DNA of 64,000 nucleotides from Desulfobulbus sp. (lineage in GTDB: Bacteria; Desulfobacterota; Desulfobulbia; Desulfobulbales; Desulfobulbaceae): the NCBI GenBank assembly GCA_003604995.1, contig QZJD01000054.1:9692-73691 (forward strand). Direction: 5' to 3'. The position numbers and the translations under genes were made by a program. The notes under the pieces were generated by a model, which saw only the letters and a list, made by a program, of their open reading frames with translations, was not told the DNA's origin and searched no databases. Below are positions 8,054 through 23,649 of the stretch, piece by piece (position 1 is the first letter of the stretch; the number at the start of each line of letters is the position of its first letter).

Positions 8054-8124
8054 GGCAACCTCGCAAAAGCGGAAATACTGAGCATCCGCCGATGAGATTT
8101 CAACACGTTATACGACCTGCCGGC

Positions 8125-8153: not shown

Positions 8154-8176
8154 AAATCATGGCCTTCCCCTTACCG

Positions 8177-9088: not shown

Positions 9089-9141
9089 GAAGCAACTCCT
9101 CGTTGGTGTTGGTCATCATTTGACCGGCACGGCCACGGTTG

Positions 9142-10266
9142 TCAATGGCACGCCGACCGGTCGTGGCGAATAGTATTCTCCGGCCTGAACACAATGATGT
9201 CCTCCGCCCGCAGGCAGGTCGTGACCTCCTGCCCCGGGGCGATGGCGTATCCGCGGACGGCATGATCGGACAGCCGCATGCGGAGGCGCGATGCAGGGTC
9301 CGCATGCGGGCGCAGCAGGGCGATGGCCTCGCTCCCCAGGCCGATCAATTCTTCCACGGTCGCGGGGATCCGGTTGGCCGACTCCCCATCCATCTCCTTG
9401 TCCGGGCGCAGCAGCAGGACATTGTGCGGCAGAACGGCGAATTTTACCTTGCCGCCGGCCGCGACCGTCGGCGGGGCATGAACCTGCAGGAGGTGCGAGC
9501 CCCAGCGCAGGCACGACCGTTCTCCGCTCGGCGCCGATTCGATCCGCGCTTCAAAGATATTGTCGATATCCAGCAGGCGGGCGGCTTCTTCGTTTGCGGG
9601 ACGGGTCAGGACCTTGTCCATGGACCCGTCCTGCACGCAGCGGCCATGGTGGAGCAGGATCAGATGCGCGGCCAGTTGCGCGGCCTCGTCCAGATCGTGG
9701 GTGACCAGAAGCACCGTCATGTTGAGCTGGGCATGGATCCTGCGCAATTCCACATAGAGGCGTTTTCTGGTGCTGCGGTCCACCGCGGAAAACGGTTCGT
9801 CCAGGAGCAGTACCTGCGGCCGGCGGGCCAGCGCCCTCGCCAGGGCCACCCGCTGTTTCTGGCCGCCGGAGAGCTGATGCGGGTAGCGGCCTTCGAGGCC
9901 GTCGATATGGGTGAGCCTCAGAAAGTGCAGGGCCTGGGCCGTGCGTTCCGGGCGCGGCAGGTGGGTCAGGGCCGTTTCGACATTGCCCAGCACGGTCTGA
10001 TGTGGGAAAAGGGCGTACTGCTGGGTGGTGTGGCCGATGGGCCGCCGATGGGTAGGCAGGTGGAAGGGGCGTCCGCTGTCGGCCCACACTGTTCCCGCGA
10101 AGGAGATTCGTTCGCTGCACGGACGGAGCAGGCCGGCGATGGCTCGCAGAATGGAAGTTTTGCCGCTGCCGGAAGGGCCGACCAGGGCAGTGATGACCCC
10201 TTGGGGGATCTCTACCCTTATGTCCAGCACCGGGGCGTCATGGCGCAGTTCCAGATGGAGGCTCAT
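9142..10266 (-). CDS. modC: molybdate ABC transporter ATP-binding protein with C-terminal TOBE/Mop domain
   Basis: Walker A GPSGSGKTS, signature [15 protein letters not shown], Walker B LLLDEPFSAVD, and a ~130-aa C-terminal extension. Adjacent to modB and modA. Confidence 0.85.
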   Translation of the reverse strand: MSLHLELRHDAPVLDIRVEIPQGVITALVGPSGSGKTSILRAIAGLLRPCSERISFAGTVWADSGRPFHLPTHRRPIGHTTQQYALFPHQTVLGNVETALTHLPRPERTAQALHFLRLTHIDGLEGRYPHQLSGGQKQRVALARALARRPQVLLLDEPFSAVDRSTRKRLYVELRRIHAQLNMTVLLVTHDLDEAAQLAAHLILLHHGRCVQDGSMDKVLTRPANEEAARLLDIDNIFEARIESAPSGERSCLRWGSHLLQVHAPPTVAAGGKVKFAVLPHNVLLLRPDKEMDGESANRIPATVEELIGLGSEAIALLRPHADPASRLRMRLSDHAVRGYAIAPGQEVTTCLRAEDIIVFRPENTIRHDRSACH

Positions 10267-10940
10267 GGCAGGGAGTTCCTCCGCATCAGGCGACCGACCA
10301 GGCCATGGCTGATCACGATGGTAAGCAGCGAAACCAGCACCAGGAGCAGGGCCATTCTGCCGGCGCCTTGCAGATCAAAGGCCTGCACGCTGTCGTAGAT
10401 GGAGATCGCTACGGTTTTGGTCGCGCCCGGGATATTGCCCCCGACCATCAATACCACGCCGAACTCTCCCAGAGTGTGGGCAAAGGTCATCACGGCGGCG
10501 GAGAGAAGACCGGGCCAGGCCAGGGGGAGTTCGATGCGCCAGAAGGTCTGCCAGAAGGTCAGTCCGCAGCACTGGCCGGCCTCGCGAATTTCCGGGGCGA
10601 TCGCCTCAAAGGCCCGTTGCACGGGTTGCACGGCAAAGGGGATATTGAAGATGAGCGAGGCGGCCACCAAGCCGGAAAAGCTGAAGGCCAGCGTACTTCC
10701 TGAAAGAGCGTGGTAGGTCCTGCCCAGCAGGGTCTGATTGCCCATTACCACCAGCAGGTAATAGCCGATCACCGTGGGCGGCAGCACCAGCGGAAGGGCC
10801 AGGAGCCCTTCGATCCAGGGCTTGCCGGGCCAGGTGGTCGCCGCCAGCCAGCGGGCGGTGAGCACGGCCGGCGGAAGCAGAATAACCAGGGTGGCCAGAG
10901 CCAACTTGACGGAAAGGAAAACGGCCGTCCAGTCCATCAT
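10263..10940 (-). CDS. modB: molybdate ABC transporter permease
   Basis: ORF 10263..11252 trimmed to ATG 10940, which forms an ATGA overlap with the modA stop. Multi-TM protein with an EAA-type loop (EAGQCCGLTFWQTFWRIELPLA). Confidence 0.85.
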   Translation of the reverse strand: MMDWTAVFLSVKLALATLVILLPPAVLTARWLAATTWPGKPWIEGLLALPLVLPPTVIGYYLLVVMGNQTLLGRTYHALSGSTLAFSFSGLVAASLIFNIPFAVQPVQRAFEAIAPEIREAGQCCGLTFWQTFWRIELPLAWPGLLSAAVMTFAHTLGEFGVVLMVGGNIPGATKTVAISIYDSVQAFDLQGAGRMALLLVLVSLLTIVISHGLVGRLMRRNSLP

Positions 10941-11821
10941 CGCGAAGCGTCCTCCTCCGGCAGCACAAACCCGTATCGGCTGAAGACCTCGCGGGCGTGG
11001 GGCGCTTGCAGATACTGATAAAAGGCGCGGGCCGTTTCGCCGGCGGTATTGAGCAGCACCATCCGTTGCCGGAGGGGCTCGCCGGCGTGCCGGTCGGTCG
11101 GGATCAATGCGAAAATGCCGAGTTTTGCCACTTCCGGCGCCTTGGAAAGAGAGAGGGGGATAATCCCGCCCTGGCAGGAGCCGGAGGTCGCGAATTGAGT
11201 GGCCTGCGAGGCGTTCTCCCCGAGGACGAGCCGCGTCTCCATGGATGACCACAGACCCATGGCCTGGAGCGCCGCTCGCGCCGCCCGCCCGTACGGTGCG
11301 TGTTCCGGGTTGGCGATGGCAAAGCGTTTGATCCGCCCGTCCCCCACCGCGGCCTTCAGATCGGCCATGGCCTCATCCACCCGGAGGGGCGAGCCGTGCG
11401 GGGCAAAGAGCACGATGCGGCCGATGGCGTAGAGTGTCCCCTGATCCTGGGTAAGGTTTTTGGCCGCGAGCCTGAAGATGTACTGTTCGTCAGCGGAGAG
11501 GAAGATCTGGAACGGCGCGCCGTTTTCGATCTGGGTGGTGAAATTTCCCGAGGAGCCGAAGGAAAGCCGGATCTCCCGGCCGGTATCCCTGGTGAAGTGT
11601 TCGGCCAGTTCGGTGAGGGCGAATTTGAGATCGGCGGCGGCCGCGACGGGCGGGGCGTCGGCCGCAAGGCTGGAGCAGGGCGCCGCAAGAACGAGGGCGA
11701 GAAGCAGGACCGCCGCGGCCAGGGACTTGCCACGGAAAAAGGGCGAAAATCGGAGAGGAACGGCCTGCGGAACGCAGCGGCCGGAATGTTGAGGCCGCTT
11801 CATGGACGTGGGATGGCGCAT
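10937..11821 (-). CDS. modA: molybdate-binding periplasmic protein
   Basis: ORF trimmed to ATG 11821, just after the moaA stop (alternative ATG 11803). Signal peptide, and blocks SFGSSGNFTTQIENGAPFQIFLSAD typical of ModA. Confidence 0.8.
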   Translation of the reverse strand: MRHPTSMKRPQHSGRCVPQAVPLRFSPFFRGKSLAAAVLLLALVLAAPCSSLAADAPPVAAAADLKFALTELAEHFTRDTGREIRLSFGSSGNFTTQIENGAPFQIFLSADEQYIFRLAAKNLTQDQGTLYAIGRIVLFAPHGSPLRVDEAMADLKAAVGDGRIKRFAIANPEHAPYGRAARAALQAMGLWSSMETRLVLGENASQATQFATSGSCQGGIIPLSLSKAPEVAKLGIFALIPTDRHAGEPLRQRMVLLNTAGETARAFYQYLQAPHAREVFSRYGFVLPEEDASR

Positions 11822-11823
11822 GG

Positions 11824-12855
11824 TCAGCCCCCGATCTTGGCCATGGACGGCTCGGCGGTACGGCTGGCGGAGCGCTCGGCCTCGTGACCGTTGGCGAACC
11901 GGTGGCGCGCGCAATTGAGCACCGCCTCACTGATCTCCCGGTCTGAAGTGCCGCCGCGCAGAAGTTTTTTCAGATCCAGGGTGCCGTTGTCGTACAAACA
12001 GGTCTTGAGGATTCCGGCTGGCGTGATCCGCAGTTTGTTGCAGGTGGCGCAGAACAGCCGGGAATATCCCTGAATGATTCCCAGGGAGCCCGCATAGCCG
12101 GGCAGGGCGAAGAGGCGGGCGGTGGTCGGCTGGTCGGTGGCGCACTCGGTCAGCTCGGGGAATATCCTGAGCAAACGGGCGGCAAGATCACTTTTTTCAA
12201 GGGTTGCGGCGTGGTCACGGCCGGAAAAGGGCATCCGTTCGATAAAGCGCAGGGAAATCGGATGCTGCTTGGCCAGGGCGGCTAGCCCTCGGATTTCCTG
12301 GTCGGTGGTGTCGTCGAGGACGACGCTGTTGATCTTGAGGGGAAGCGCCCGCGCGATGATCCCGTCCAGGGCCTCCAGGACGGAGTCCAGGTAGTTTCGC
12401 CGACTGATCGACTTGAACCGCTCGGGATCCAGGGTGTCGAGACTCAGGTTGATGCCGTCGATGGCGATTTCGGCCAGCTCGTCAAGGAACTGGGCGGTCT
12501 TGACGCCGTTGGTGGTGATGTGCAGCCGCTCCACGCCCGGTATCCGCCGCAGCCGTTCAAGAAACGGCATGCAGCCGCGCCGGGAAAAGGGCTCGCCGCC
12601 GGTGACCCGGATCTTGCTGATCCCCAGGCCGGCGAAAATGGTCACCAGCCGCTCCAGTTCCTCAAAAGAGAGGATTTCATCATGATGGATGAAGGGTACG
12701 CCCTGTTCGGGCCGGCAGTAGCGGCAACGCAGGTTGCAGCGGTCGGTGATCGAGAGGCGCAGATAGGTGATCCGGCGGCCGTGATTGTCAACGAGGCTTG
12801 TACGATGATGAACGGGCTGCGGGGACAGGGATTCCCCGCCGGCGATGCGTGTCAT
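11824..12855 (-). CDS. moaA: GTP 3',8-cyclase MoaA (radical SAM)
   Basis: CNLRCRYC radical-SAM motif and a C-terminal CATCNKLR cluster. The listed ORF start (12870) is a TTG inside the Shine-Dalgarno, and ATG 12855 is preceded by GGAAAGGAG. Confidence 0.9.
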   Translation of the reverse strand: MTRIAGGESLSPQPVHHRTSLVDNHGRRITYLRLSITDRCNLRCRYCRPEQGVPFIHHDEILSFEELERLVTIFAGLGISKIRVTGGEPFSRRGCMPFLERLRRIPGVERLHITTNGVKTAQFLDELAEIAIDGINLSLDTLDPERFKSISRRNYLDSVLEALDGIIARALPLKINSVVLDDTTDQEIRGLAALAKQHPISLRFIERMPFSGRDHAATLEKSDLAARLLRIFPELTECATDQPTTARLFALPGYAGSLGIIQGYSRLFCATCNKLRITPAGILKTCLYDNGTLDLKKLLRGGTSDREISEAVLNCARHRFANGHEAERSASRTAEPSMAKIGG

Positions 12856-12857
12856 GG

Positions 12858-12958
12858 TTCTCCTTTCCAAGTACGGGAGGCTTGGCCGTTTCCAGCCAGA
12901 CCCTGGCGGCCGGGGACCCTATCAGCGACGTAGGCCCTTTGGCTCGGAGGATATATTG
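12858..12958 (-). ncRNA. Moco (molybdenum cofactor) riboswitch-like leader
   Basis: Minus-strand RNA: AUCCUCCGAGCCAAAGGGCCUACGUCGCUGAUAGGGUCCCCGGCCGCCAGGGUCUGGCUGGAAACGGCCAAGCCUCCCGUACUUGGAAAGGAG. Elements CCUCCGAGCC, GGAAAC, GCCUCCC and a terminal AAAGGAG that includes the Shine-Dalgarno match my recollection of the Moco motif. Nested stems are visible (GGGCCUA/UAGGGUCCC, GGCCG..CGGCC, GCCAG/CUGGC). Sits directly upstream of moaA. Confidence 0.55.
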
Positions 12959-12966
12959 GTTATTCT

Positions 12967-13140
12967 TTATGAAATAATTTTTCGCTCCGCTTTGTCAAGC
13001 TCATTCAGCCCCTTTTTAAAGGAAGCGATACCTTTTCCCAGACCTGCGCCCAGTTCCGGCAGTTTTTTTCCGCCGAAGACCAGGAAGGCGATCACGAAAA
13101 TGATGATGAGTTCCGGGGTGCCGAGTCCAAACAGACTGAT
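12967..13140 (-). CDS. tatA: twin-arginine translocase subunit TatA/E (57 aa or less, non-ATG start)
   Basis: Not in the ORF track because it is under 60 aa. Minus strand encodes (I S) L F G L G T P E L I I I F V I A F L V F G G K K L P E L G A G L G K G I A S F K K G L N E L D K A E R K I I S. AAGGAGG lies immediately upstream. The likely start is CTG 13134 (giving MFGLGTPELIII) or ATC 13140. Confidence 0.7.
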   Translation of the reverse strand: MSLFGLGTPELIIIFVIAFLVFGGKKLPELGAGLGKGIASFKKGLNELDKAERKIIS

Positions 13141-13146: not shown

Positions 13147-14142
13147 TCAGGCGATGATTCCGATCGGGGTGGGGCGATCAGCAGCCCCCCTCCGCAGGGT
13201 TAACGCATTTTTGTTGCAAAAGGCCGTGCAGAGACCGCAGCCGCTGCATTTTGCGCTGGTGAAGGAGAGCTGTTGTTCTCCTTTGTCGTTACGCACCCGT
13301 TTCAATGCGCCCGTCGGGCACATGCCGGTGCAGCGAGGACACAGATTGCAATCGCCGCTGGCGGTCAGAGTATGAAAATACGCATGGAGCAGCGACCTGG
13401 CCGCATCGTCGTCCGGCGGCAGCATGGTCAGCGCCTCCCGCAGCAGAAGGGGGATCGCGGTGGCGTCCTTGTCGAGGGGCATCCCATTCGTTAACCCGCC
13501 TTCAAGCGGGCCGACCGGCCCGGAAAATTCCGTCAGATGGTCTTTGACCATTCCGAAAAAGGAGCGCCGTCCCTGCCGGTACGAAATCGGTCCGCTCTCC
13601 GCCTCCGTGAGATAGCGCAGGCGCAGCTCGGCTTTGCGGTCGTTTTTGCGAAGAATTCCCGACATCCTTGTCTGGAGCAGCCCGAGGGTATGCCCGTTGT
13701 CGCAGTCGGCACATCCGCGGATGTCCAGATAGAACAGGCTGCCGGCGACAACATTCATGGCCGCCAGCACCGGTTCGGAAAAGTAGCCGATGCAGGGGAC
13801 AATGAAACGGTTGGGCGCGGCAGAGGGGGTCCTGCCGCAGGACAGGACAACCGGTTGCCCGCCCCTGTTTTCGTGCAGCACACGCAGGAGAAGCGCCACG
13901 GCAAAGGGGGCGATCAGGGCATCGTTGGGGCAGACCGAAATACAGACCATGCATTCCGTGCAGCGATCAGCATGGAAGGCTATTTTACCGCCGTCGAGGG
14001 TCAGGGCCTTGTTCGGGCAGGAGTACAGACACCGCGAACAGGGCGCGTTCCCCAGCCGGGGACGCAGGCAGCGGCCGGCGTTCAGGGAGACGGCCGGCAG
14101 CAGTTGTTTTTCCAGGGTATTAAACAGCAGCCCCGCAAGCAT
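13147..14142 (-). CDS. poly-ferredoxin-like protein with four Cys-cluster motifs
   Basis: Cluster motifs: CSRCLYSCP, CTECMVCISVCP, CNLCPRCTGMCP and CSGCGLCTAFC. The two ferredoxin-like ends are separated by a ~190-aa middle region. No signal peptide. Start set at ATG 14142 (GAGGA upstream); ATG 14169 is the alternative. Confidence 0.75.
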   Translation of the reverse strand: MLAGLLFNTLEKQLLPAVSLNAGRCLRPRLGNAPCSRCLYSCPNKALTLDGGKIAFHADRCTECMVCISVCPNDALIAPFAVALLLRVLHENRGGQPVVLSCGRTPSAAPNRFIVPCIGYFSEPVLAAMNVVAGSLFYLDIRGCADCDNGHTLGLLQTRMSGILRKNDRKAELRLRYLTEAESGPISYRQGRRSFFGMVKDHLTEFSGPVGPLEGGLTNGMPLDKDATAIPLLLREALTMLPPDDDAARSLLHAYFHTLTASGDCNLCPRCTGMCPTGALKRVRNDKGEQQLSFTSAKCSGCGLCTAFCNKNALTLRRGAADRPTPIGIIA

Positions 14143-14794
14143 GGGGATCCTCGGTCTTGCTCGTTGCATCGGTCATCCGATGCCGGTGGGCCAGCGGCGC
14201 GATGAATTTTTCCAGGCAGTCTGCCAGAGAACTGTAAAATCCGCCGGCCGTGCCGTTTCGGATGGCGTTGCAAAATTGCGGAACCCACGGGGCAAGATAA
14301 TTGAGCAGGAAGTGCGCCTGGGTCGCGGCATAGGCGACGGCTTCGTCCCGGTCACCCTTTGCCGCTGCTTCGGCCTCCCCCATGTACAGAAAATGCATGA
14401 ATTCGAGTTCCAGGGCGATATGGTCCGGTGCCTCCGCCACATCCGGAGCCAGACCCGCGGCCCGGTACAATTTCCGGACGGCCATGGTGGAGTCGCCCAT
14501 GAGCATTCGCTTGCCTTCAAGATAAACAGATCCGTAGGGAGGTGCGGCGAGCTCAAAAGGACCGATGAACAGGCCGGCATGCTCAACCAGCAACGTTTCT
14601 TCGTCCGTCGCGAGGAGATGGGAGCGCATGGTCAAGGCGGCCCGGGCGGCGCCGGGGTTCCTGTTTTCGGTCAGCAGGTCGGCCAGATTATCACAGAGCC
14701 GTTCCTGAATAAACAGGTCCTTTTCCGGCTCATAAAAGCAGGCGGCCAGAAGCTTGCAGCAGTCACCTTGGCGTATAATCGTATCCGTGGGCAT
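14120..14794 (-). CDS. TorD/DmsD-family redox-enzyme maturation chaperone
   Basis: LLAACFYEPEKDLF.., EHAGLFIGPFELAAPPYGSVYLE, and PDHIALELEFM typical of TorD-like REMPs. Lies next to the Tat-exported Mo enzyme. Confidence 0.8.
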   Translation of the reverse strand: MPTDTIIRQGDCCKLLAACFYEPEKDLFIQERLCDNLADLLTENRNPGAARAALTMRSHLLATDEETLLVEHAGLFIGPFELAAPPYGSVYLEGKRMLMGDSTMAVRKLYRAAGLAPDVAEAPDHIALELEFMHFLYMGEAEAAAKGDRDEAVAYAATQAHFLLNYLAPWVPQFCNAIRNGTAGGFYSSLADCLEKFIAPLAHRHRMTDATSKTEDPHACGAAV

Positions 14795-14825
14795 GGTATC
14801 GTTTCATTTTGAGCGAGAAAGGAGT

Positions 14826-14854
14826 GAGGGGGCCGCCTTCATGGCCGCCCCCTC
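14826..14854. other. intercistronic GC-rich hairpin between the FeS-subunit gene and the chaperone gene
   Basis: gagggggccgcc-ttcat-ggccgccccctc. 11 of 12 bp paired. Confidence 0.4.
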
Positions 14855-14879
14855 GCTTCAACCGGGAGACCATGCCCGT

Positions 14880-15653
14880 TTATTTCCGGACGCTGTATTC
14901 CCGAATGTAAAAGACGTTAGGCTCGGTCCCGGCCTCCGGCTTGAGCACGGAGGGCTTGTGCTTGGCGAGCAGTTTGGCCACCTCGCTGTTCGGGTCGCTT
15001 CGATCGCCGAAAATGCGGGCGCCGGCCGGGCAGGATACCACGCAGTACGGGAGTTCGCCCTTGACCACCCGGTGCGCGCAGAAGATGCATTTTTCGACGA
15101 TATTGGCCCGTCGTACATCCTCGTAGTCCGGGTGATTGTACCGGGTGCGGTGCGGCGGGTCGGCACCCGCCCTGGCCGCTATTTCCGCGCCGGAGGTGGT
15201 GCCGTCCTTGATCAGTTCCGTTTTGTCGGCATAGAAGGTTTCATACGGCTCGCCCTCGGCATTGTAGCTGATGACGCTGTATTCGCCATAGGCGCCGTCC
15301 CGCTTCACTTCCTCCATGCTGTAGGGGCAGGCTTCCTGGCAGGCGCGGCAGCCGATACAGCGTTCGTCGTTGTGCATGGTGATGCCGTCCGGCGTCTTGT
15401 ACATGGCCTTGGGCTCCACCGGGCAGGCCTCGACGCAGGGCGCGTTCGAGCAGTGGTTGCACAGGACGGGCCGTGTTCGGTAGCCGGTATTGGGAAATTT
15501 GCCGGTGGTTTCGTGAAGAAAGTCCGCCCAGTTATGGGTCTGGCCGTTGCGCCGCAGGGCCGTGTTGTTCTCCGTTTTGCAGGCCAGGGCGCAGGCCCCG
15601 CAGCCCACGCATTTCTGGAGATCTATTACCATCGCGTATTGCGTCATTGTCAT
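14880..15653 (-). CDS. 4Fe-4S electron-transfer subunit of the molybdopterin oxidoreductase (ArrB/PsrB/DmsB type)
   Basis: MVIDLQKCVGCGACALACKTENN, CNHCSNAPCVEACP, CIGCRACQEACP, CIFCAHR...CVVSCP. C-terminal LKPEAGTEPNVFYIR. Confidence 0.9.
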   Translation of the reverse strand: MTMTQYAMVIDLQKCVGCGACALACKTENNTALRRNGQTHNWADFLHETTGKFPNTGYRTRPVLCNHCSNAPCVEACPVEPKAMYKTPDGITMHNDERCIGCRACQEACPYSMEEVKRDGAYGEYSVISYNAEGEPYETFYADKTELIKDGTTSGAEIAARAGADPPHRTRYNHPDYEDVRRANIVEKCIFCAHRVVKGELPYCVVSCPAGARIFGDRSDPNSEVAKLLAKHKPSVLKPEAGTEPNVFYIREYSVRK

Positions 15654-15666
15654 ATCCTCCTCTTGT

Positions 15667-18240
15667 TCAGATCCGTTCGATTTTGACGCCGGTGAAGCCG
15701 CCGTTGCGCACGTTCGCGCCGCTCAGCCGTTCGATGTCAAAGGGCATCAGGGTGTTGTTGTTGCCGCCGCGCGGCACACCCTTGGCGTAATCCTTGGCGG
15801 CGGTTCGACCATACGCCCAGTGGCCCTGGCCGAAGGCCTTGGCAACCGTGCCGGGCCGCACCCCTTCCCAGAGACGGGCAACACATTCGATGCTGGCCAC
15901 CACCGAGGTAACCCGGATCGGGTCGCCGTCCTTGATGCCCAGTTTGTCGGCATCAACGGGATTGATCTGCAGCGAGTCCTGATGGCCCACGTCGCCGGGA
16001 TCGCAGTGCTTGAATTCATAATACCAGGGCGCATTCTGGCTGCGCCCCTCGCGGTTGAGTCGCGATTTGTAGTCGATGAAGGTGAAGGGGTATTCCTTCG
16101 CGTCGCCATGGCGGAAGGGCGGCTCGTAGTGCGGGACAAAGGCCAGTTCGCCTCGGGCGGTGTAGTTGCAGGCCTCCAGGATTTCGTCCACCGTGGCCTT
16201 GTGCTTTTCGGCGTGACCGGCAAGCGCCTTCTTCAGGGTCTCGCTGTAAAACTCGAACTTGTGGGAGACCGTACCGGTGGTGGTTACCTTCCCGTCCTTT
16301 TCTTCGTCCTTGCCGAATTTGCCGCCCCAGCGTTTCTTGTAGGGCTGGGGGTCGGAGTTCCACATGCCGCGCTTTCGGAATTCCGCCCAGCCGTTGATCT
16401 TGTCGCCGCCCACATCTTTGCCGTTCCACATCTCCTGGGTGTAGAACTTCACAGCATACTCGGTGAATTCCTTCGAGTTGGTCGCCTCCTTGCCGGTTTC
16501 CGGATCCTTGAACTCCTTTTTCAGGTAATCGATCAGGTTGGGGAAGCCGCGTTCCGCCAGCTTTTCGCCGAGCATCCACGGGAATTCGGTTTCATCGTTG
16601 ATCGCGTCCCACATGGGCTTGACCACCGGCTGCAGCAGGGTGCACTGGGCGTAGCGGTTCTGTTTCTGCTTCACCCAGGCGAGCTTTTCGTACTTGGATA
16701 TGGCGCCGGGCAGGACGATGTCCGCATAGTGGGTCATTTCCGCGGCATTGGTGGTGATATGGACGAAGAAGGGGATTTTTTCCATGGCCTTTTCCCACCT
16801 TTCAGCGCCTGAACAGGAGAAGGCGAAGTTGTTCATATAGCCCACCGCCACCTTGATCTCGTAAGGATCGGCGTTCAGGATGCCGGTGGGTACGTTGTTG
16901 GTGACCACGCCGCCGCCCGATTTGCCGGCATTGAGGGCCGGGATGGCCTTGGTGCCGCGCTGGTCGATTTTTTTCATCTTGGCCTGTTTCTTGGCCAGCT
17001 CATCCTGATAGGCATCCACCTTCGGCATCTTGCTGGTTGGCACCTTGTTGGAGGGCAGGGTGCCGCCGACATTGTCAACGCCGCCGACCAGGCCGTTCAG
17101 GGCATTGACCGCCATGGCCGCGTAGCCGCCGCGAACCTGCATGGCCGCGCCCGGCCCCATCCAAACCGCGACGTTGGGCGCGGCCTTGGCCATGCCGCGG
17201 GCTACCCGCTCGATCTGCTCGGCCGGTACTTTGGTGATCTCTGCGGCCTTGGCCGGGGTCATGTCCTTGACCGCGATGTTCCACCACCTGACCACCCCGT
17301 GCGTTTCCTTTTCCTCGAAGGCGGCCTCGTCTACGGTTTCGCCGACCTTGAACAGGTTTTTGCCGTCCTTGAAGTCGCCGACGAATTCCTTGAACCAGAG
17401 CCCCTCGGCCAGGATGACGTGGGCGATGGCCAGGGCCAGGGCGCCGTCGGTGCCGGGCAGTAGCGGCATCCATTCCTGGGCCTTGGCCGCAGTGTTGTTC
17501 AGCTTGGGATCGGCAACCGCCACGGTGGCGTTGTCGAGCACATCGCCCAGGCGCTTGATGGTCGCCGGGATCATCCGGTTGGAGCTGACCGGGTCGCAGC
17601 CCCAGACCAGAAGGTATTTTGAGTTGCTGATATCATAGTCGCGGTAGCCCCACATACCCTCGGTATAATAAGCCCCGAAGTTCTCGGCCTCGGCGCAGAT
17701 GGCGCTGTGGGAGATATTGTTGGGAGAGCCGATGATCTTGGTGGTGGCATCGTAGAGAAGATCCCGCATATACGTATAGCGGCCGCGCAGGAGCAGGTAC
17801 TTTTCGGGTTCGCCGGCCTTCCTGAGCTCCATCACCTTGTCGGCGATGGTATTGAAGGCCTCGTCCCAGGAGATGGGCACGAATTTCGGATCAACGCCGC
17901 GTCCTTTTTTCGGATTGGTACGTTTCATCGGGGTCTTGATCCGATCCGGGTCGTAGAGTTGCTGGAGGGAGAGATGGCCGCGCGGACAGACAAAGCCGTC
18001 GTTCTGCTTGGAATGCCGGTTGCCGCGCACCTTGACCGCCCGTCCGTCCTGGACAAAGACTTCCACCGGGCACCAGGTGGTGCAGCCCTGGCAGGTGGAG
18101 GGCTTCCATTCGCCGGGCAGCTCGCCGACCTCAGCCTTTTTCGCTTCCTCGGCAAAGGCATGCAGTGCCGGTTTTCCCACTGTTGCGGCCGCGCCGGCGG
18201 CGACCGACAGTTTCAAGAAGTCCCTGCGCTTGATTTTCAT
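15667..18240 (-). CDS. Tat-exported molybdopterin oxidoreductase catalytic subunit (DMSO reductase family), ArrA/ArxA-like by motif (tentative)
   Basis: ORF trimmed to ATG 18240 (AGGAGG upstream). Twin-arginine signal MKIKRRDFLKLSVAAGAAATVGKPALHAFA. FS0 motif C-X2-C-X3-C-X27-C (CQGCTTWC...C). Probable Mo-ligand Cys in SHSAICAEAE. The block EGLWFKEFVGDFKDGKNLFKVG...WWN...MTPAKAAEIT resembles the ArrA marker region as I remember it. Confidence 0.85.
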   Translation of the reverse strand: MKIKRRDFLKLSVAAGAAATVGKPALHAFAEEAKKAEVGELPGEWKPSTCQGCTTWCPVEVFVQDGRAVKVRGNRHSKQNDGFVCPRGHLSLQQLYDPDRIKTPMKRTNPKKGRGVDPKFVPISWDEAFNTIADKVMELRKAGEPEKYLLLRGRYTYMRDLLYDATTKIIGSPNNISHSAICAEAENFGAYYTEGMWGYRDYDISNSKYLLVWGCDPVSSNRMIPATIKRLGDVLDNATVAVADPKLNNTAAKAQEWMPLLPGTDGALALAIAHVILAEGLWFKEFVGDFKDGKNLFKVGETVDEAAFEEKETHGVVRWWNIAVKDMTPAKAAEITKVPAEQIERVARGMAKAAPNVAVWMGPGAAMQVRGGYAAMAVNALNGLVGGVDNVGGTLPSNKVPTSKMPKVDAYQDELAKKQAKMKKIDQRGTKAIPALNAGKSGGGVVTNNVPTGILNADPYEIKVAVGYMNNFAFSCSGAERWEKAMEKIPFFVHITTNAAEMTHYADIVLPGAISKYEKLAWVKQKQNRYAQCTLLQPVVKPMWDAINDETEFPWMLGEKLAERGFPNLIDYLKKEFKDPETGKEATNSKEFTEYAVKFYTQEMWNGKDVGGDKINGWAEFRKRGMWNSDPQPYKKRWGGKFGKDEEKDGKVTTTGTVSHKFEFYSETLKKALAGHAEKHKATVDEILEACNYTARGELAFVPHYEPPFRHGDAKEYPFTFIDYKSRLNREGRSQNAPWYYEFKHCDPGDVGHQDSLQINPVDADKLGIKDGDPIRVTSVVASIECVARLWEGVRPGTVAKAFGQGHWAYGRTAAKDYAKGVPRGGNNNTLMPFDIERLSGANVRNGGFTGVKIERI

Positions 18241-18328
18241 GAGCTTCCTCCTGTGCTGAGAGTGGTACGAAGTGGTTATCCAACGATGCACTTCAAGGGT
18301 CAGTTGCAAGACAATCCGTTATCTTCAA

Positions 18329-18343
18329 GCACTATCCGTGCCA
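18329..18343 (-). promoter_or_regulatory. sigma-54 promoter candidate for the Mo-oxidoreductase operon
   Basis: Minus strand reads TGGCAC-GGATA-GTGC(T), one mismatch to TGGCAC-N5-TTGCW. Lies ~90 nt upstream of ATG 18240 and directly downstream of an NtrC-type regulator gene. Confidence 0.5.
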
Positions 18344-18474
18344 GTTCGCGAGATCGGCTTGCAACGGGGTGGCGGAATACATTTTCTATACGTAAAGCCA
18401 ACGAGATGGATGGGTTTGCGGTGCCGGTTGCCCATGCGGTTTTTCCATAAATGTGAAGAGCGTTCGGCGCCGAC

Positions 18475-18492
18475 TGTTACGAAAAAGTAGCA
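18475..18492. promoter_or_regulatory. TGTTAC-N6-GTAGCA inverted repeat, candidate activator site A
   Basis: TGTTACGAAAAAGTAGCA, ~145 bp upstream of the sigma-54 promoter at 18329-18343. Confidence 0.4.
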
Positions 18493-18647
18493 CCGTGGTG
18501 CGGCTTAGGTAGAAAAAAAATCATTAAATCAAGATAATTTAAATACGGATCGGCCTGGTCGAAAAAAGCGTGTCCGCCGTGGCGCAGGATCGTTGCACGT
18601 GGGGAGAGACCAGTCTCCGTCAGGGCGGAGGCCCCGGCACGGAGGAG

Positions 18648-18665
18648 TGTTACATGCATGTAACA
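18648..18665. promoter_or_regulatory. TGTTAC-N6-GTAACA perfect palindrome, candidate activator site B
   Basis: TGTTACATGCATGTAACA, 20 bp perfect with flanks (18647-18666). A weaker half-site, TGTTACCCGACAGGCAAG, lies at 18676. Confidence 0.45.
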
Positions 18666-18726
18666 CTGTTGAGTCTGTTACCCGACAGGCAAGTGGATCA
18701 TTGTGGTATTGTAGACAGGGAAAAAA

Positions 18727-20073
18727 TTATATGTCAAGGCGGTAGTTGTTCATTTTCTCCCACAGGGTCTTGCGGCTGATGCCAAGGATTTCCGCGGCCT
18801 GGGTCCGGTTGCCCTGGGTGACCCTGAGGATGCGCAGAATGTGGGATTTTTCCGCCTCGGCCGCGACCTCGGCCAAGGGGAGGAGACGGGTCCGGGCGGC
18901 CTTGTCCTTAAGGACATGGGGCGGCAGGTCCTTTTGATCAACCACGCCGCCGTCGGCCAGGGTAACGCACCGCTCGACGATATTGATCAGTTCCCGGACA
19001 TTGCCCGGAAAGGAATAGCGGCAGAGTTCGGTCACCGCCCCCCGGGAAAACCTGACCGCCAATCCGTACTGGTCATTGAATTTCCGGACAAACCGGTCGA
19101 TGAGGAGCGGGATGTCATCGTGCCGGTCGCGCAGGGGCGGCAGCTCGATGGGGATGACGTTCAGGCGGTAGTAGAGGTCCTCTCGAAATGCCCCCTTTTT
19201 GATCTCCTTGCCCAGGTCCTTGTTGGTGGCGGCGATGACCCGGACATCGACTTTAAGGGTTTCTGTTCCGCCAAGCCGCTCGAATGCTCGTTCCTCCAGC
19301 ACCCGGAGCAGCTTGGTCTGAGTGAGCGGGGGCAGATCGCCGATTTCGTCGAGAAAGATGGTGCCGGTGTCCGCCATCTCGAAACGGCCCGGCTTGCGGG
19401 CGGCAGCCCCGGTGAAGGCCCCCTTTTCGTAGCCGAACAGCTCGGATTCCAGGAGATTGTCGGGCAGGGCGGCGCAGTTGACCCTGATCAGGGGCTTGTC
19501 CCGGCGGCCGCTTTGGTAGTGGATGGTGGAGGCGATCAGTTCCTTGCCGGTGCCGGACTCCCCGAGAAGGAGCACGGTGGAGTCGGTCCGGCTTACCTTG
19601 TCGAGCAGGGTCAGGACCTGCCACATGGCCCGGCTTTCTCCCACGATGCTCGGAAAGTTGAGGGCCTCCGACAGCTCCTTCTTGAGGCGGATGTTTTCTT
19701 CGGCGAGCCGCCGGGACGCCAGCGCACGCCGGACGACGATGAGCAGCTCGTCCTGGGCGAAGGGCTTGGTGATATAGTCGAAGGCGCCGAGGCGCATGGC
19801 CTCCACCGCGTCGTCGATGGTGCCGTAGGCGGTCATGACGATCACCGGCAGGGAGGGGTTGTCCTGCAAGGCCTTTTTCAGCACGCCGATGCCAGTGACG
19901 TCGGGCAGGCGGACGTCGGTGACCACCAGGGAGAAATCACCCTGGCCCAGGGTCAGGATGCCCGATGCGCCGTCTTCGGCGGTCAGAACCGTGTAGCCTT
20001 CCGCCCGGAGCATGTCGGCAAGGCTGACCCGCATTATTTTTTCGTCTTCGATGATCAGGATGCTGTCATGCAT
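18727..20073 (-). CDS. sigma-54-dependent response regulator (NtrC family)
   Basis: ORF trimmed to ATG 20073 ([12 protein letters not shown]..). Receiver domain, AAA+ domain ([14 protein letters not shown]) and C-terminal Fis-type HTH. Confidence 0.9.
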
Positions 20074-21527
20074 GATGCCTCCGGAAAGACTATCGTAAAG
20101 GTGGCGCCCTCGTTGGCCCGGCTTTCGACGCGGATGTCGCCCTTGTTGCGCTGGACAAGTTCGTAGGTCATCCACAACCCGAGCCCGGTTCCTTCCTCGG
20201 CTTTTTTGCTGGTGTAGAACAGGTCGAACACCTTGCTGATCTCGGACTCGGGAATCCCGACCCCGGTGTCGGCAACGGTGATCACCACATCGTATTTGTC
20301 ACCGCGGGCGGCGACCGTCAGCCGGCCGCCGTCAGGCATGGCCTGGATGGCGTTGATCAGCAGGTTCACCAGGATCTGATTCAGGTCATGGCGGCTCACA
20401 GCCACGAACAGCCCGGCCGGGACGTCGGAGTTGAACACAATTTCCGTTTTTTTGAGACGATAGTCGATGAAGCGGAGAACCGCGGTCAGCACCTCCGCGA
20501 CGTTGGCGCGCGCCTCTTCCCCCCTTCTTTTGCCGGCGGTCCACAGGAGCTGGGAGACGGTCTGTTCGATGCTGGTCACGCCTTCCTGCATGAGATCAAG
20601 GTAACTGGCGCGGAAGACGGGATCGTCACCGCTGCGCCGGAGGATGGCGATACAGTTCTGCAGGCCGCCCAGGGGATTGTTGATCCGGTGCGCCACGCTG
20701 GAGGAAAGGATCCCCAGGGTGGCGAGCTTTTCCGACTGGAGCAGTTTTTCATGGGCCTTTTTCATATCGTCATTGGCCCGGCTGAGGCGGTGGACCATGG
20801 CATTGAAATCTCTGGCCAGCTGGGCCAGCTCGTCATTGCCGGTCACCGGTGCCAGGTGCTGGGGGGTGGCGGAATCGACCCCCCGCATGACCGCCGCCAG
20901 GTCGGTGATCGGGCGGATAAATCGCCTGCTCAACAGAAAGATCAGGACAAAGCCGCAAAAGAGAGCAAGCAGGGCCACCGACCATATTTCGATGAGCATC
21001 CGCCGGACCTCCTGGTTCACATGGCGCAGGCTGACCGCAAAGAGAAAGACCCCCCAGTTTTTGCCGCCGATGGAAAGCGGCGCGGCGAATTCCAGGGCGC
21101 TCTCGCCGGTCTCGCTCGGTTCTATCGGGCGGACAACCACCTCCGAGCCTTCGGCGAACGTAAAGACCTTGTCGCCGTACACCTTGCCGTATTCCTGAAA
21201 ATCGCTGTGGGAAATGACCCGGTGGTTTTCATCGAGCACCGCCAGGTAGAGATAGTCAAGCTCCCTGCGCTTGAACAGCTCTTGCAGGTAGTTGTCGATC
21301 AGGCCCCCTTCCTCCACCAGGCCAAGTTTTTCATAGATCAGCTCGTTGATGATCAGGGCCGCCACGGTCTGGGCCAGGACCTTTCCCTGTTTTTCCGTGG
21401 CGTCATGGAGGACGGTGCGGTTGCGGGAGGCGGCGAGAAAGCCGAAAATGGTCGTGAACAGCAGGATCGCCACCGAGGCGATGGTGATGAATTTCCACTG
21501 CAAGGGCAGATAACCGGGCACGTTCAT
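20055..21527 (-). CDS. membrane sensor histidine kinase (periplasmic domain, HAMP, HisKA, HATPase)
   Basis: Two TM segments, a HAMP domain, H-box SSVAHRINNPLGG, and G-boxes DTGVGIP / GTGLGLW. Confidence 0.9.
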   Translation of the reverse strand: MNVPGYLPLQWKFITIASVAILLFTTIFGFLAASRNRTVLHDATEKQGKVLAQTVAALIINELIYEKLGLVEEGGLIDNYLQELFKRRELDYLYLAVLDENHRVISHSDFQEYGKVYGDKVFTFAEGSEVVVRPIEPSETGESALEFAAPLSIGGKNWGVFLFAVSLRHVNQEVRRMLIEIWSVALLALFCGFVLIFLLSRRFIRPITDLAAVMRGVDSATPQHLAPVTGNDELAQLARDFNAMVHRLSRANDDMKKAHEKLLQSEKLATLGILSSSVAHRINNPLGGLQNCIAILRRSGDDPVFRASYLDLMQEGVTSIEQTVSQLLWTAGKRRGEEARANVAEVLTAVLRFIDYRLKKTEIVFNSDVPAGLFVAVSRHDLNQILVNLLINAIQAMPDGGRLTVAARGDKYDVVITVADTGVGIPESEISKVFDLFYTSKKAEEGTGLGLWMTYELVQRNKGDIRVESRANEGATFTIVFPEASCMTAS

Positions 21528-21528
21528 G

Positions 21529-23271
21529 TCAAAACGAGGTCTTTGGATGACAACCCATGCCGCAGCTGACCGGCACGTCGTTGATCATTTTGCGGATGCC
21601 CCGGTAATCGGCGTCCGAGGCGGGGATGAAGCCGCCCTGCATGTCCGGGTCGAGCTGGCGCAGGACCTCATTGCCCTTTTCGTCGGACTCCATGGCAAGA
21701 AGGGCGTCCTGGACTTTTTTGACCACGGCATAGGGGGTGTGCGGCGAGACAACAATCGGCCCGGTGGGTATGGGGTCCGAGGCGGCGATGATCCGCAGGC
21801 CGAAGGGCAGGTAGCGCTGGGCGACGGACTGGCGGATGCCTCCGGCATCGTATTCGCCGCTGAGCACCTTCTTGACCACGGTTTCGTGATAGCTGTAGTT
21901 GGTGTAGCGTTCAAGTTTGTCCAGATGAATTCCGCTCCAGGCCAGCATGGAACGGGGGATCAGGTTGCCGGAGGTTGACCAGACGGAGGCGAAGGCCATT
22001 TTTTTGCCGTGGAGTTCGGCGACCTTTTGAAAGGGCTTATCCGGGGCGGTTACGATGACGCTGTAATAGAAGGGTTCGCCCTCCGCGGTCTTGCTTTTCA
22101 CGATGGGCGGGGTGCCGAAGCGGTTGAAGGCATCAAGATAGGTGAGTGGTCCCAGCAGGGCGAAATCCGTTTCGCCGGAGCCAAGCCCGGAGACCGTCTG
22201 CTCGTAGGTGTTATTCAGCAGGAGTTCCAGGCGTAGACCGGTTTCGGTGGCCAGGTAATCCAGGAGCGGTTGATATTTTTCATAGGCGATTCGCGGATTG
22301 TCCCGGGGAATGACCCCAAAGTGGAAAATGCTTTCCTGCTCCGCGGTCGGGGTCGCTATGCTCCCCTCCCGGACGACGCCCTGTTGCGCGAGAAAATCGC
22401 GCATCTCCCGGACCAGGTCGTAGTTGCTGTCCGGCACCACGACAAACTGGTCGATGCGCATGGCGGAGAGAATCTTTTTTCCCTCCGGATCAAGGTGCAT
22501 GGCAAGGAGAATTTCTCTGATTTTGTTCTTGAGAAAAACCGGCAGGCCGGGCGGCACGACCACCGGCGGAATCCCGAACTCGGGGGAACGGTGGATGATC
22601 TTGACCTGCTTGGCATAGGGTGAGTCCTCGGCCAACATGTACGCGTAGACCGCGGAATCGACGGCCGCGGCGTCGGCTTTTTTCTTGGCCACCATCTCCA
22701 CCGACTTGTTGTGGCTGTAGCTGAAGAAATAGCGTTCGAAAAAGCGGTCAGGCTCCCAGCCGTTCCGGGCGAGCAGGTAGAGGGGATATTGTCGTCCGGT
22801 ATTGGACTTCGGATCGACAAAGGCAAAGGTTTTGCCGGCAAGATCCTCGATGGCGGCGATACTGCCGTCCTGGTGGACGATGATGTACGACTGATAGGTC
22901 GTTTTGCCGTCCACCACCGGGGCTACGAGCAATTCCACGCCGAAGGCGTCCTTATCCTCCACGTAGGGGGCGGTGCAGATGAAGGCAAGGTCGACCTGCT
23001 GCTGGGCAAGCATCCGGTCGATCTCGTCATAGGTGGTGCGATGGACCATCTCCGCCGGGGTCTCCAGCTTGGCCGCCAGATAGTCGACGATCTGCTGATA
23101 GTAGCGGACCGCGCTGACCGGGGTCACCATGCTGGCCACGCCGACGCGGAGAGGTTTAACCTGGGAGGCGCCCGTCGCCGGGGGCCAAGGGATGAGGAAG
23201 GCCAGGAGCATGAAGATGAGGAAGCCGGCCTTCCCGCCGGCGAATGATGGGAGCTTTTTGGGTATCTGCAT
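21529..23271 (-). CDS. periplasmic protein with two tandem PhnD-like (phosphonate-type) substrate-binding domains
   Basis: ORF trimmed to ATG 23271 (signal peptide MQIPKKLPSFAGGKAGFLIFMLLAFLIPWPPATGA). Two repeats of the PhnD-like pattern (LRVGVASMVTP..YYQQIVDYLAAKL..VDLAFI and FHFGVIPRDNP..YQPLLDYLATETG..TDFALL). The C-terminus ends VSCGMGCHPKTSF. Confidence 0.8.
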   Translation of the reverse strand: MQIPKKLPSFAGGKAGFLIFMLLAFLIPWPPATGASQVKPLRVGVASMVTPVSAVRYYQQIVDYLAAKLETPAEMVHRTTYDEIDRMLAQQQVDLAFICTAPYVEDKDAFGVELLVAPVVDGKTTYQSYIIVHQDGSIAAIEDLAGKTFAFVDPKSNTGRQYPLYLLARNGWEPDRFFERYFFSYSHNKSVEMVAKKKADAAAVDSAVYAYMLAEDSPYAKQVKIIHRSPEFGIPPVVVPPGLPVFLKNKIREILLAMHLDPEGKKILSAMRIDQFVVVPDSNYDLVREMRDFLAQQGVVREGSIATPTAEQESIFHFGVIPRDNPRIAYEKYQPLLDYLATETGLRLELLLNNTYEQTVSGLGSGETDFALLGPLTYLDAFNRFGTPPIVKSKTAEGEPFYYSVIVTAPDKPFQKVAELHGKKMAFASVWSTSGNLIPRSMLAWSGIHLDKLERYTNYSYHETVVKKVLSGEYDAGGIRQSVAQRYLPFGLRIIAASDPIPTGPIVVSPHTPYAVVKKVQDALLAMESDEKGNEVLRQLDPDMQGGFIPASDADYRGIRKMINDVPVSCGMGCHPKTSF

Positions 23272-23364
23272 AATACCGAGTAGTGTTGCAAATTGCAGGC
23301 CACAGTTCAATTCCCCCTGAATACGGGAGGATGGCCTGGTAAGGGGCGATCCCGGTCGGCAAAG

Positions 23365-23382
23365 TGTTACAAAAAGGTAACG
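23365..23382. promoter_or_regulatory. TGTTAC-N6-GTAACG inverted repeat, candidate activator site D
   Basis: TGTTACAAAAAGGTAACG, ~100 bp upstream of the PhnD-like gene start. Same motif as sites A and B. Confidence 0.4.
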
Positions 23383-23649
23383 CATTGCCGGCCGCGGCGC
23401 AAGGGGAAAACCTCCACCGTGGTACTTCGGAATACTATTATGGCGGCGGTGACATTTTCGTTATCCCTTGTCAATCCCGCTCCCAGCCGGTAGCATAATG
23501 GCCATGCAGGAGATTTTAAGGAACGGGCAAGGCGGCGTGCCGGCGCGGACAGCCTGTCGGCCGCGGCATTTCCCTTTCTAAAGAAGGAGCACCCGCGGAG
23601 AGGCGTTCCAAGGGATGGTTTGAATTCAGACGGTTGGAAAGGAAGCGGC

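Follow-up and report, generated by a model that had tools for sequence, protein, structure and literature searches.

Gene organization of the arr locus

The sequence studied here is a 64,000-nt window, by which we mean the whole stretch of DNA that was analyzed, from contig QZJD01000054.1 (GCA_003604995.1) of a Desulfobulbaceae genome assembled from a metagenome. The window holds a gene cluster that, as judged from its sequence, is very probably a respiratory arsenate reductase (arr) locus under arrXSR/sigma-54 control. The open reading frame (ORF) listing and the family scans of the window placed all cluster genes co-directionally on the minus strand, in the order arrX-arrS-arrR, arrA-arrB-arrD-arxB2-like-tatA, and molybdenum cofactor (Moco) riboswitch-moaA-modABC-moaCB-moeA.

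The regulatory part begins with arrX (21529..23271), encoding a periplasmic tandem binding protein of 580 amino acids (aa) with an N-terminal signal or anchor helix and two matches to PF12974. Its true start is the ATG at 23271, which gives the same length as a 580-aa database twin, rather than that of the 618-aa maximal ORF. The ATG of arrS (20055..21527) lies one base beyond the arrX stop, and the gene encodes a membrane histidine kinase in which a transmembrane helix, a periplasmic domain, and a second transmembrane helix precede the HAMP, HisKA, and HATPase domains. The third gene, arrR (18727..20073), encodes an NtrC-type sigma-54 activator with REC, Sigma54_activat (AAA+), and HTH_8 domains. 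Across an intergenic gap of 486 nt follows arrA (15667..18240), the Tat-exported molybdopterin subunit of 857 aa, identified by Pfam, NCBIfam, and trees. Downstream lie arrB (14880..15653), a four-cluster iron-sulfur (FeS) subunit matching NF041715 and several Fer4 domains; arrD (14120..14794), a TorD/DmsD-family chaperone (PF02613, E 6e-33); a polyferredoxin of 331 to 340 aa recognized by its ArxB2 alignments (13147..14169, start at 14169 or 14142); and tatA (12967..13134; 55 aa, PF02416), which starts with CTG, 6 nt past an AGGAGG.

An earlier note on this DNA had listed a double PhnD-like protein, a histidine kinase, a sigma-54 activator, a molybdopterin subunit, an FeS subunit, a TorD chaperone, a polyferredoxin, and tatA on one strand, and every one of these components was recovered on the minus strand. 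The tatA gene is indeed present, but it falls just outside the range that the note had given for the module. Scans of the region for terminators and for sigma-70-like promoters (5 found versus 3.7 expected) both returned matches at chance level, and these scans therefore leave the operon ends undefined.

Phylogenetic placement of the catalytic subunit

ArrA carries the Fe4S4 (PF04879), Molybdopterin (PF00384), Molydop_binding (PF01568), and Tat signal (PF10518) domains, and its fold is that of the DMSO reductase family. Its FS0 cysteines C50, C53, C57, and C85 form the C-X2-C-X3-C-X27-C motif read earlier in the sequence and are invariant in the aligned homologues. The cysteine Mo ligand, claimed as well, is present in the active-site comparison, and the block EGLWFKEFVGDF...WWN...TPAKAAEIT was found again in the arrA translation. 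The NCBIfam ArrA model NF041714 matches the protein end to end (1123.8 bits, model positions 2 to 847 of 848), the next family being PhsA at 281.7 bits. Likewise, the best solved match is ArrA of Shewanella sp. ANA-3 (981.6 bits, residues 43 to 856), followed by a Thermus polysulfide/thiosulfate reductase (141.6 bits). Local identity to the plasmid-encoded ArxA proteins of Cereibacter azotoformans ORIO and Sulfuricella denitrificans skB26 is 36 to 41%.

According to the cited part of a recent study, bacterial ArrA proteins have (R/K)GRY at Shewanella residues 163 to 166 and ArxA proteins have GRGWG, with further active-site positions at residues 189, 193, 198, and 210 (PMC13685797). The protein described here has RGRY at residues 152 to 155 (17776-17787), and the GRGWG motif of ArxA is not present. 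The active site keeps, besides RGRY, His189, Ser190, Cys193 (the Mo ligand), and Tyr210 in Shewanella numbering.

The ArrA alignment comprised 134 rows, namely the query, 76 ArrA-like ORFs from named genome records, 2 named ArxA sequences, and 55 representatives of 50%-identity clusters. Sequences from Shewanella, Chrysiogenes, and Alkalilimnicola are not among the rows. Since the tree includes no experimentally characterized ArrA, its link to function rests on the motif and on the match to the solved enzyme. In the FastTree phylogeny, the query lies inside a 90-row clade with RGRY in all but three rows, and the GRGWG sequences fall across a split with a support of 100 from that clade. In a 51-row subset analyzed with IQ-TREE (LG+C20 PMSF, quick search), the query belongs to a 5-row clade (support 100) nested within clades of 36 rows (support 100) and 39 rows (support 99), which are RGRY-type except for one KGRS pair, and the named ArxA sequences of Cereibacter ORIO and Sulfuricella skB26 form a separate clade (support 100). 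Grouping the query clade with ArxA was rejected by the approximately unbiased (AU) test (delta lnL 325.5, p-AU 0.0001).

These results show that the protein belongs to the RGRY-motif ArrA clade. A maximum-likelihood tree, the kind of check that the earlier note had proposed, sets it apart from Psr/Phs/Ttr-like outgroups; it branches inside the Arr clade, and the placement within those groups that would have refuted the note's reading was not seen. The broader Arr/Arx assignment made from the sequence has thus been upheld by the tree together with the full-length matches to the ArrA model and to Shewanella ArrA, and it can be narrowed to Arr rather than Arx by RGRY and the AU test. The note had left the substrate open, and this caution still holds, as the arsenate activity is a prediction made from sequence.

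A tandem periplasmic sensor with a CX3CH tail

The suggestion that the sensor is an unusual two-domain binding protein was also sustained. PF12974 was found twice in ArrX (E 5e-131), and an AlphaFold model built with 26 homologues (mean pLDDT 82.3, pTM 0.57) has two complete alpha/beta modules, residues 41 to 296 and 315 to 565, with a low-confidence linker between them. This two-module build, together with a short C-terminal tail, departs from the single bilobed domain of about 300 aa that characterizes the AioX/ArxX/ArrX subfamily. The best Foldseek matches of the model are ArrX (TMt 0.89 to 0.93) and AioX (TMt 0.91 to 0.94).

Domain 1 (residues ~41-296; 22384..23151) is of the ArrX/AioX type by its solved relatives, Foldseek matches, and pocket. 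Its best solved relative (over maximal-ORF residues 79 to 329) is ArrX of Chrysiogenes arsenatis (E 3.1e-45, 158 bits), then AioX (E 1.5e-34, 123 bits). Domain 2 (residues ~315-565; 21577..22329) is a distinct PhnD/PtxB-like domain by its solved relatives and pocket, with PtxB (E 6.9e-22), PhnD, and HtxB as best solved matches over maximal-ORF residues 353 to 600. The possibility that domain 2 is a recent duplicate of domain 1 was rejected, as the two share 28% identity and have different best solved relatives.

The AioX pocket consists of Tyr88, Cys106, Tyr131, Ser161, Ser163, His192, and Asp210, as stated in the cited part of PMC5908839. Aligning the PhnD-like domains with AioX/ArxX, as had been proposed, showed that domain 1 retains this set (Y-C-Y-S-T-H-D, that of AioX/ArxX/ArrX), the Thr at AioX position 163 being shared with Sulfuricella ArxX and many single ArrX-like proteins, and that domain 2 (Y-G-Y-S-S-H-R) differs in being without the Cys and the Asp. 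The domain 1 pocket reads YCYS[ST]H[DE] in all 33 distinct tandem proteins. The domain 2 pocket reads YG[YF]SSHR in 26 of them, and the remaining 7 have five other patterns. We also considered whether the domain 2 pocket tracks the downstream enzyme, and this was rejected because YGFSSNS occurs in one arr-linked and two Ttr-like-linked loci. Domain 1 is shown to be an ArrX/AioX-type oxyanion-binding domain, as far as sequence and predicted fold can define one.

The C-terminal tail VPVSCGMGCHPKTSF (21532..21576) contains an invariant CX3CH (C570-H575) within the consensus (V/I)P-x-x-C-G-x-x-C-H-P, which ends every tandem protein printed. The motif is present in 32/32 distinct tandem-X sequences from the loci and in 118/120 database homologues, the two exceptions having aberrant C termini, and it also ends the domain 2 half of a split X in one genome. 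It was not found in the nine single-domain X proteins inspected. Several papers on multiheme cytochromes reportedly count CX3CH among the nonstandard c-heme attachment motifs.

Two further proteins resemble parts of this sensor. In a Nitrospirae record (L007 17969-21812), 5 kb downstream of the arr cluster, a stand-alone domain-2-like protein with the pocket YGYSQHQ and without the CX3CH tail has its own kinase and sigma-54 regulator. In the genome of the window, on another contig (C32; L120 9242-12788), a second, single-domain ArrX-like protein that shares 49% identity with domain 1 is encoded ahead of a hybrid HAMP-PAS kinase bearing a receiver domain; no molybdoenzyme lies nearby.

Kinase, regulator, and predicted regulatory sites

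ArrS has a weak sCache_3_2 match ahead of its HAMP, HisKA, and HATPase domains and is 26% identical to Sulfuricella ArxS over its full length (E 4e-40). ArrR is 42% identical to Sulfuricella ArxR. The two proteins are therefore full-length homologues of ArxS and ArxR by alignment. The aioXSR/arxXSR-like control logic proposed for this module is supported by the presence of X, S, and R homologues adjoining arrA together with a predicted sigma-54 site.

The sigma-54 promoter candidate TGGCACGGATAGTGC (18329..18343, minus strand) has 1 mismatch to TGGCAC-N5-TTGC and lies about 100 nt before the arrA ATG. Matches to this consensus are no commoner than chance across the window (67 found versus 73.8 expected), so the arrA site finds its support in its location and in the presence of corresponding sites in relatives. 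Comparable sites, with at least 9 of 12 consensus positions and located at -50 to -103 of arrA, are present in 12 of 77 arr loci (L004, L005, L013, L014, L017, L018, L025, L027, L029, L034, L038, and L050). On these two grounds, the candidate first picked out from the window alone is sustained. A second sigma-54-like -24/-12 element, TGGCCTGCAATTTGCA (23287..23302, minus strand), lies upstream of arrX, and a GG-N10-GC ...TTGCA element precedes the tandem X in 9 of 13 relatives.

Furthermore, a search for inverted repeats yielded TGTTAC-N6-GTAACA, with two copies between arrR and arrA and one upstream of arrX. The distal copy, TGTTACATGCATGTAACA (18648..18665, assigned to neither strand), is a perfect repeat; the proximal copy, TGTTACGAAAAAGTAGCA (18475..18492, likewise unstranded), has 1 mismatch; both are candidate ArrR upstream activating sites. 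The third, TGTTAC-N6-GTAACG (1 mismatch; 23365..23382, unstranded), is a candidate site for ArrR autoregulation. Allowing up to 2 mismatches, the window contains 4 copies versus 0.98 expected (50 shuffles, maximum 5), and three of the four sit in arr regulatory DNA. Among the 82 loci scanned, 14 carry a tandem X, and in 13 of these the repeat (up to 1 mismatch) stands no more than 450 bp upstream of arrA, usually as two copies about 170 bp apart and often with another upstream of X; it occupies the equivalent place upstream of the tandem X in L004, L005, L010, L017, L025, L027, L034, and L038. Outside tandem-X loci, it was seen just in L009 and L030, which are truncated upstream, and in L045, where the one hit lies far downstream. 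TGTTAC-N6-GTAACA is thus likely to be the ArrR binding site, that is, the predicted operator of the neighboring HTH_8 activator.

ArxB2-like polyferredoxin and cofactor supply

The polyferredoxin aligns over about 286 aa, including its non-ferredoxin middle, with ArxB2 of Cereibacter (29% identity, E 3e-15) and of Sulfuricella (25%, E 5e-12). A weak NapF-type match and the lack of a signal peptide apparent by eye suggest a cytoplasmic maturation role for this ArxB2-like protein. The role of arxB2 was described as unclear and the gene as apparently specific to arx clusters in 2019 (PMC6549141). Homologues of the ArxB2 type occur in many arr clusters, which contradicts that statement of specificity.

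The gap between tatA and moaA is filled by a Moco riboswitch (12844..12961, minus strand) that matches the full RF01055 model (68.5 bits, gathering threshold 36, E 6.2e-15) and overlaps the start of moaA. The molybdate uptake and cofactor block (6836..12855) continues on the minus strand with moaA (11824-12855), modA (~10937-11800), modB (~10263-10940), modC (9142-10266), a moaC-moaB/mog fusion (8177-9088), and moeA (6836-8053). A riboswitch-moaA pair near arr was also found in 3 of 7 loci scanned, namely L004 (same position), L034, and L014. The molybdate uptake and cofactor genes thus seem to extend the arr operon as a block with separate feedback control. Neither the riboswitch nor this block had been mentioned in the earlier note.

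Distribution and comparison with known systems

Gene neighborhoods were compared in 80 arr loci fetched from named genomes, 59 of them with at least 5 kb upstream and 62 with at least 3 kb downstream. Within 7 kb of arr, the 59 loci have a tandem X gene in 12 cases, a single one in 22, and none in 25. Downstream of arrA, arrD is present in 62/62 loci, arrB in 60/62, and a polyferredoxin in 29/62. Of 301 genomes from the order of the window, 61 have ArrA (E below 1e-150) and 25 a full-length tandem X, and arrA follows the tandem X on the same strand in 20 of these 25 (one as a fragment at a contig end). Tandem X proteins are also found in the Nitrospirota records L007, L010, L011, and L051. As a separate observation, enterobacterial plasmids of Raoultella planticola and Citrobacter freundii encode a fragment that shares 59.9% identity with ArrA residues 701 to 842 and is annotated just as a molybdopterin dinucleotide-binding domain protein.

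The kind of locus is already known, since arrXSR-arrAB modules have been described before (Badilla 2018), and ArrXSR with an arsenate-binding ArrX has been published, as the cited parts of these sources state (PMC5908839). The closest solved relative of domain 1, Chrysiogenes arsenatis ArrX (6X6B, 6XL2, and others; 34 to 35% identity, TMt ~0.9), takes part in the same three-part logic of binding protein, kinase, and regulator. However, Chrysiogenes ArrX consists of one domain, about 300 aa long, whereas a second PhnD-like domain and the CX3CH tail are fused to it here. The AioXSR system of Rhizobium sp. NT-26 and Agrobacterium also combines a kinase and sigma-54-dependent activation with a PhnD-like sensor whose pocket residues are the same, but it controls the unrelated AioBA arsenite oxidase, and its AioX binds arsenite (PMC5908839, cited part).

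Clusters of the arxXSR-arxB2ABCD type (Alkalilimnicola ehrlichii), for which those of Sulfuricella skB26 pSCD and Cereibacter azotoformans ORIO pORIO3 served as comparison, resemble the arr locus in their X, S, and R genes, ArxB2-type ferredoxin, A and B subunits, and TorD-like D protein. In the Sulfuricella cluster, moaA lies downstream, as here. On the contrary, the arx clusters have a GRGWG-type ArxA, arxC, a single-domain ArxX, and arxB2 before arxA.

Shewanella sp. ANA-3 ArrAB (PDB 6CZ7) is similar in its Tat signal, FS0 cysteines, RGRY motif, ArrB partner, and lack of arrC, and its ArrA shares His189, Ser190, Cys193, and Tyr210. It differs in having Lys198, where Asn stands here, and the locus in the window adds arrD, the ArxB2-like protein, tatA, and XSR/sigma-54 control. 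We know of no arrXSR in Shewanella. Gammaproteobacteria in general are said to lack arrXSR in the part of PMC5908839 cited here.

Two type-II binding lobes per chain are also found in BvgS (4Q0C), GlnPQ SBD1-SBD2 (6H30), and transferrins, according to Foldseek. The lobes of BvgS are part of a kinase and those of GlnPQ feed a transporter, in contrast to the ArrX tandem, which, free or anchored, is paired with a kinase that is a protein of its own.

Within the same order as the window, strain MLMS-1 (Desulfurivibrionaceae) respires arsenate with sulfide, and Desulfobulbales are listed among the putative sulfur-oxidizing arsenate reducers, as the cited passages of PMC5607362 and PMC11283718 report. 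This physiology is known for MLMS-1 only, and the lineage of the window is uncultured. Among the homologues of the tandem X, one comes from a named Desulfurivibrio sp.

Proposed model and alternative explanations

Taken as an arsenate reductase locus, the cluster would work as follows. Periplasmic arsenate would bind ArrX domain 1, and the liganded ArrX would dock on the periplasmic domain of ArrS, which would then phosphorylate ArrR. Once bound to the inverted repeats, ArrR would activate sigma-54 RNA polymerase at the promoter of arrA and probably also at that of arrX. Maturation of ArrA would fall to ArrD and, in the cytoplasm, to the ArxB2-like FeS protein before the Tat system exports ArrAB, which would reduce As(V) to As(III) in the periplasm with electrons from a quinol dehydrogenase encoded elsewhere. 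The riboswitch-controlled moa/mod genes would supply the cofactor.

The genome as a whole offers several components relevant to this model. Besides a single ArrA, it encodes an ACR3 arsenite pump (360 bits, above the cut-off) and a NapC/NirT-family cytochrome (56 bits), and an rpoN fragment lies at a contig end; the closest protein matches of the genome are to named Desulfobulbaceae. The NapC/NirT-type cytochrome is a candidate electron donor to ArrAB, in analogy with CymA, which supplies electrons to ArrAB in Shewanella.

It is important to consider the observations that weigh against an arsenate reductase under XSR control. The ArrA score lies below the NF041714 equivalog cut-off of 1600, and ArrB scores 249.7 bits against NF041715, below the cut-off of 450. 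No arrC (NrfD-type anchor), cytochrome, or other electron-input gene was found in the cluster, so that the electron input must come from elsewhere, and the genome (2.64 Mb in 108 contigs) is 74% complete. The sigma-54-like element of arrX is uncertain because it is merely 17 nt from the start codon. The pocket residues are the same in ArrX, ArxX, and AioX despite different ligands: according to the cited part of PMC5908839, ArrX binds arsenate (Kd 1 µM) and phosphate (150 µM), AioX and ArxX bind arsenite, and specificity is not set by the pocket residues alone. Domain 1 is thus not assignable to arsenate over arsenite by sequence. In addition, Asn187 (17680-17682) stands where Shewanella ArrA has Lys198, so that three of the four listed ArrA residues (His189, Cys193, and Tyr210) are kept and the fourth is replaced. 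Asn occupies this position in the query, in its 4 closest relatives, and, separately, in 4 Nitrospirota sequences; among the 37 RGRY rows of the subset there are 28 Lys, 8 Asn, and 1 Tyr.

Finally, the tandem XSR is not exclusively tied to ArrA, since TtrA-like genes or a cytochrome-FeS-NrfD set follow it in 5 genomes. XSR precedes genes for TtrB-like and TtrA-like (~1100 aa) proteins in G287, G109, G012, and G265, the X gene of the last being split into two ORFs (coordinates L113 9359-13580, L114 8903-13064, L116 997-5199, and, with X split, L119 3907-7846). The TtrA-like enzymes reach 465 to 480 bits against NF011567, whose cut-off is 1750. Tetrathionate, selenate, and archaeal arsenate reductases all belong to the TtrA/SrdA lineage (PMC7331816), and because that lineage includes an archaeal arsenate reductase, these enzymes could be a second arsenic- or selenium-related reductase. 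In G010, the tandem XSR is followed by genes for an FeS protein and NrfD with a multiheme cytochrome on either side, and in G105 by nothing obvious. As a side observation, the G010 set (L117 166-5039, minus strand) is a possible quinol-oxidizing module that could feed an ArrC-less ArrAB, and arrA of that genome sits on a contig other than its tandem XSR.

Some of these points could be explained by an ArrA-clade reductase whose substrate is not arsenate but antimonate, thioarsenate, or selenate, with the second sensor domain, the CX3CH tail, and the Lys198-to-Asn change reflecting the shift. To account for Asn, the tree requires two or more changes, one in the query subclade and one in a Nitrospirota subclade; the same kind of sensor precedes TtrA-like enzymes; sulfur-handling genes (YeeE and rhodaneses) flank the locus; and an arrA-bearing Desulfurivibrio reportedly couples sulfur oxidation to Sb(V) reduction, as cited in the part of PMC11283718 considered here. 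Nevertheless, the remaining active-site markers are all of the Arr type, and domain 1 retains the full ArrX/AioX pocket. Moreover, most tandem-X loci have an ArrA with Lys198, which shows no coupling of the Asn change to the tandem sensor, and Lys is also found in Desulfocapsaceae, the nearest sister clade. We therefore regard a shifted substrate as unlikely, though it is the strongest of the alternatives.

Less probable still is that the enzyme runs in the Arx-like direction in vivo, as an anaerobic arsenite oxidase with XSR sensing arsenite. Such a role would fit the reversibility of both Arr and Arx in vitro (PMC13685797, cited part), the ArxB2 homologue, a protein hitherto linked to arx clusters (PMC6549141), and pocket residues that do not separate arsenite binders from arsenate binders (PMC5908839, cited part), but it conflicts with RGRY in place of GRGWG, with the AU rejection of the ArxA grouping, with the lack of arxC in the cluster, and with the higher score of domain 1 for ArrX than for AioX. 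Least probable, and to our mind hardly credible, is that XSR is merely adjacent and that arrA is read from a sigma-70-like promoter or answers to other regulators. A sequence of the sigma-70 type, TTGACA-18-TACAAT (11/12; 18708-18737, minus strand), does lie at the arrR stop and is a possible basal arrA promoter, and arr can evidently be regulated otherwise, because no X gene lies nearby in 25 of the 59 loci mentioned above. Against this, sigma-70-like matches are about as frequent in the region as expected by chance, and conservation of the sigma-54 site and of the paired repeats is specific to tandem-XSR loci. A respiratory arsenate reductase locus controlled by arrXSR and sigma-54 thus remains by far the most probable explanation for the cluster.

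What the additional parts of ArrX do is more speculative. Our guess is that the second binding domain may sense a second oxyanion and that the tail provides a redox, heme, or As(III)-thiol signal. Extended to the whole protein, the fused ArrX would be a multi-input periplasmic sensor, with domain 1 for arsenate, domain 2 with its positively charged YG(Y/F)SSHR pocket for a second anion (e.g., phosphate, arsenite, or thio-arsenate), and the tail as a heme site, As(III) site, or redox dithiol, a tentative scheme that we put at about one chance in a handful or slightly better. If it were true, arsenate respiration would be switched on only when substrate, competitor, and redox state come together in the right way, and the module, if also portable, would control periplasmic oxyanion respiration in general across Desulfobulbales and Nitrospirota.

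Several features appear to be undescribed in the literature searched: the fusion of an ArrX-like domain to a second PhnD-like domain with a CX3CH tail, TGTTAC-N6-GTAACA as a predicted ArrR operator, an ArxB2 homologue in arr clusters, Asn at position 198, the tandem sensor module before TtrA-like enzymes, and riboswitch-controlled cofactor genes attached to arr. No tandem form of ArrX was seen in the titles and abstracts among the "ArrX" literature matches listed. Arsenate respiration mobilizes arsenic into groundwater, and arrA is its standard marker gene. The basic picture of Arr enzymes is unchanged by our results. What they indicate is that a large, mostly uncultured ArrA branch of Desulfobulbales and Nitrospirota carries its own regulatory design, comprising a two-domain sensor with a Cys-His tail, a predicted operator, an ArxB2-type maturation protein, and a self-contained cofactor supply. 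This design yields testable hypotheses on when environmental arsenate reducers respire arsenic, and arsenate biosensors could be built with its operator and promoter.

Neighboring modules and environmental occurrence

Beside the cofactor genes, on the plus strand (3209-6011), a PstS-like protein (PBP_like_2) is followed by a methyl-accepting chemotaxis protein; the two may form a phosphate or arsenate taxis pair. Divergent from arrX, also on the plus strand (23620-28783), lie genes for a YeeE/YedE sulfur-transport protein, a PAS histidine kinase, and a second sigma-54 activator, after which an exact TGGCACGCTCCTTGC (28152-28166) stands in front of a rhodanese gene. This is, by its gene content, a separate module with predicted sigma-54 control over sulfur functions. 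Farther away, on the minus strand (37063-45032), the window encodes a CcdA/DsbD-type membrane protein, a thioredoxin, a rhodanese, a universal stress protein, and two ArsP_1-family permeases. Comparable genes (permease, thioredoxin, rhodanese, thioredoxin, and CcdA) lie next to the Cereibacter plasmid arx cluster (L001 14675-17526).

DNA near-identical to window positions 14800-18800, sharing at least half of the sampled words, was found in 9 public runs from 8 studies, with no RNA run among those listed for the arrA region. These runs are mostly labeled as sediment, groundwater, biofilm, or activated-sludge metagenomes; two carry no organism label, and one may be the source sample.

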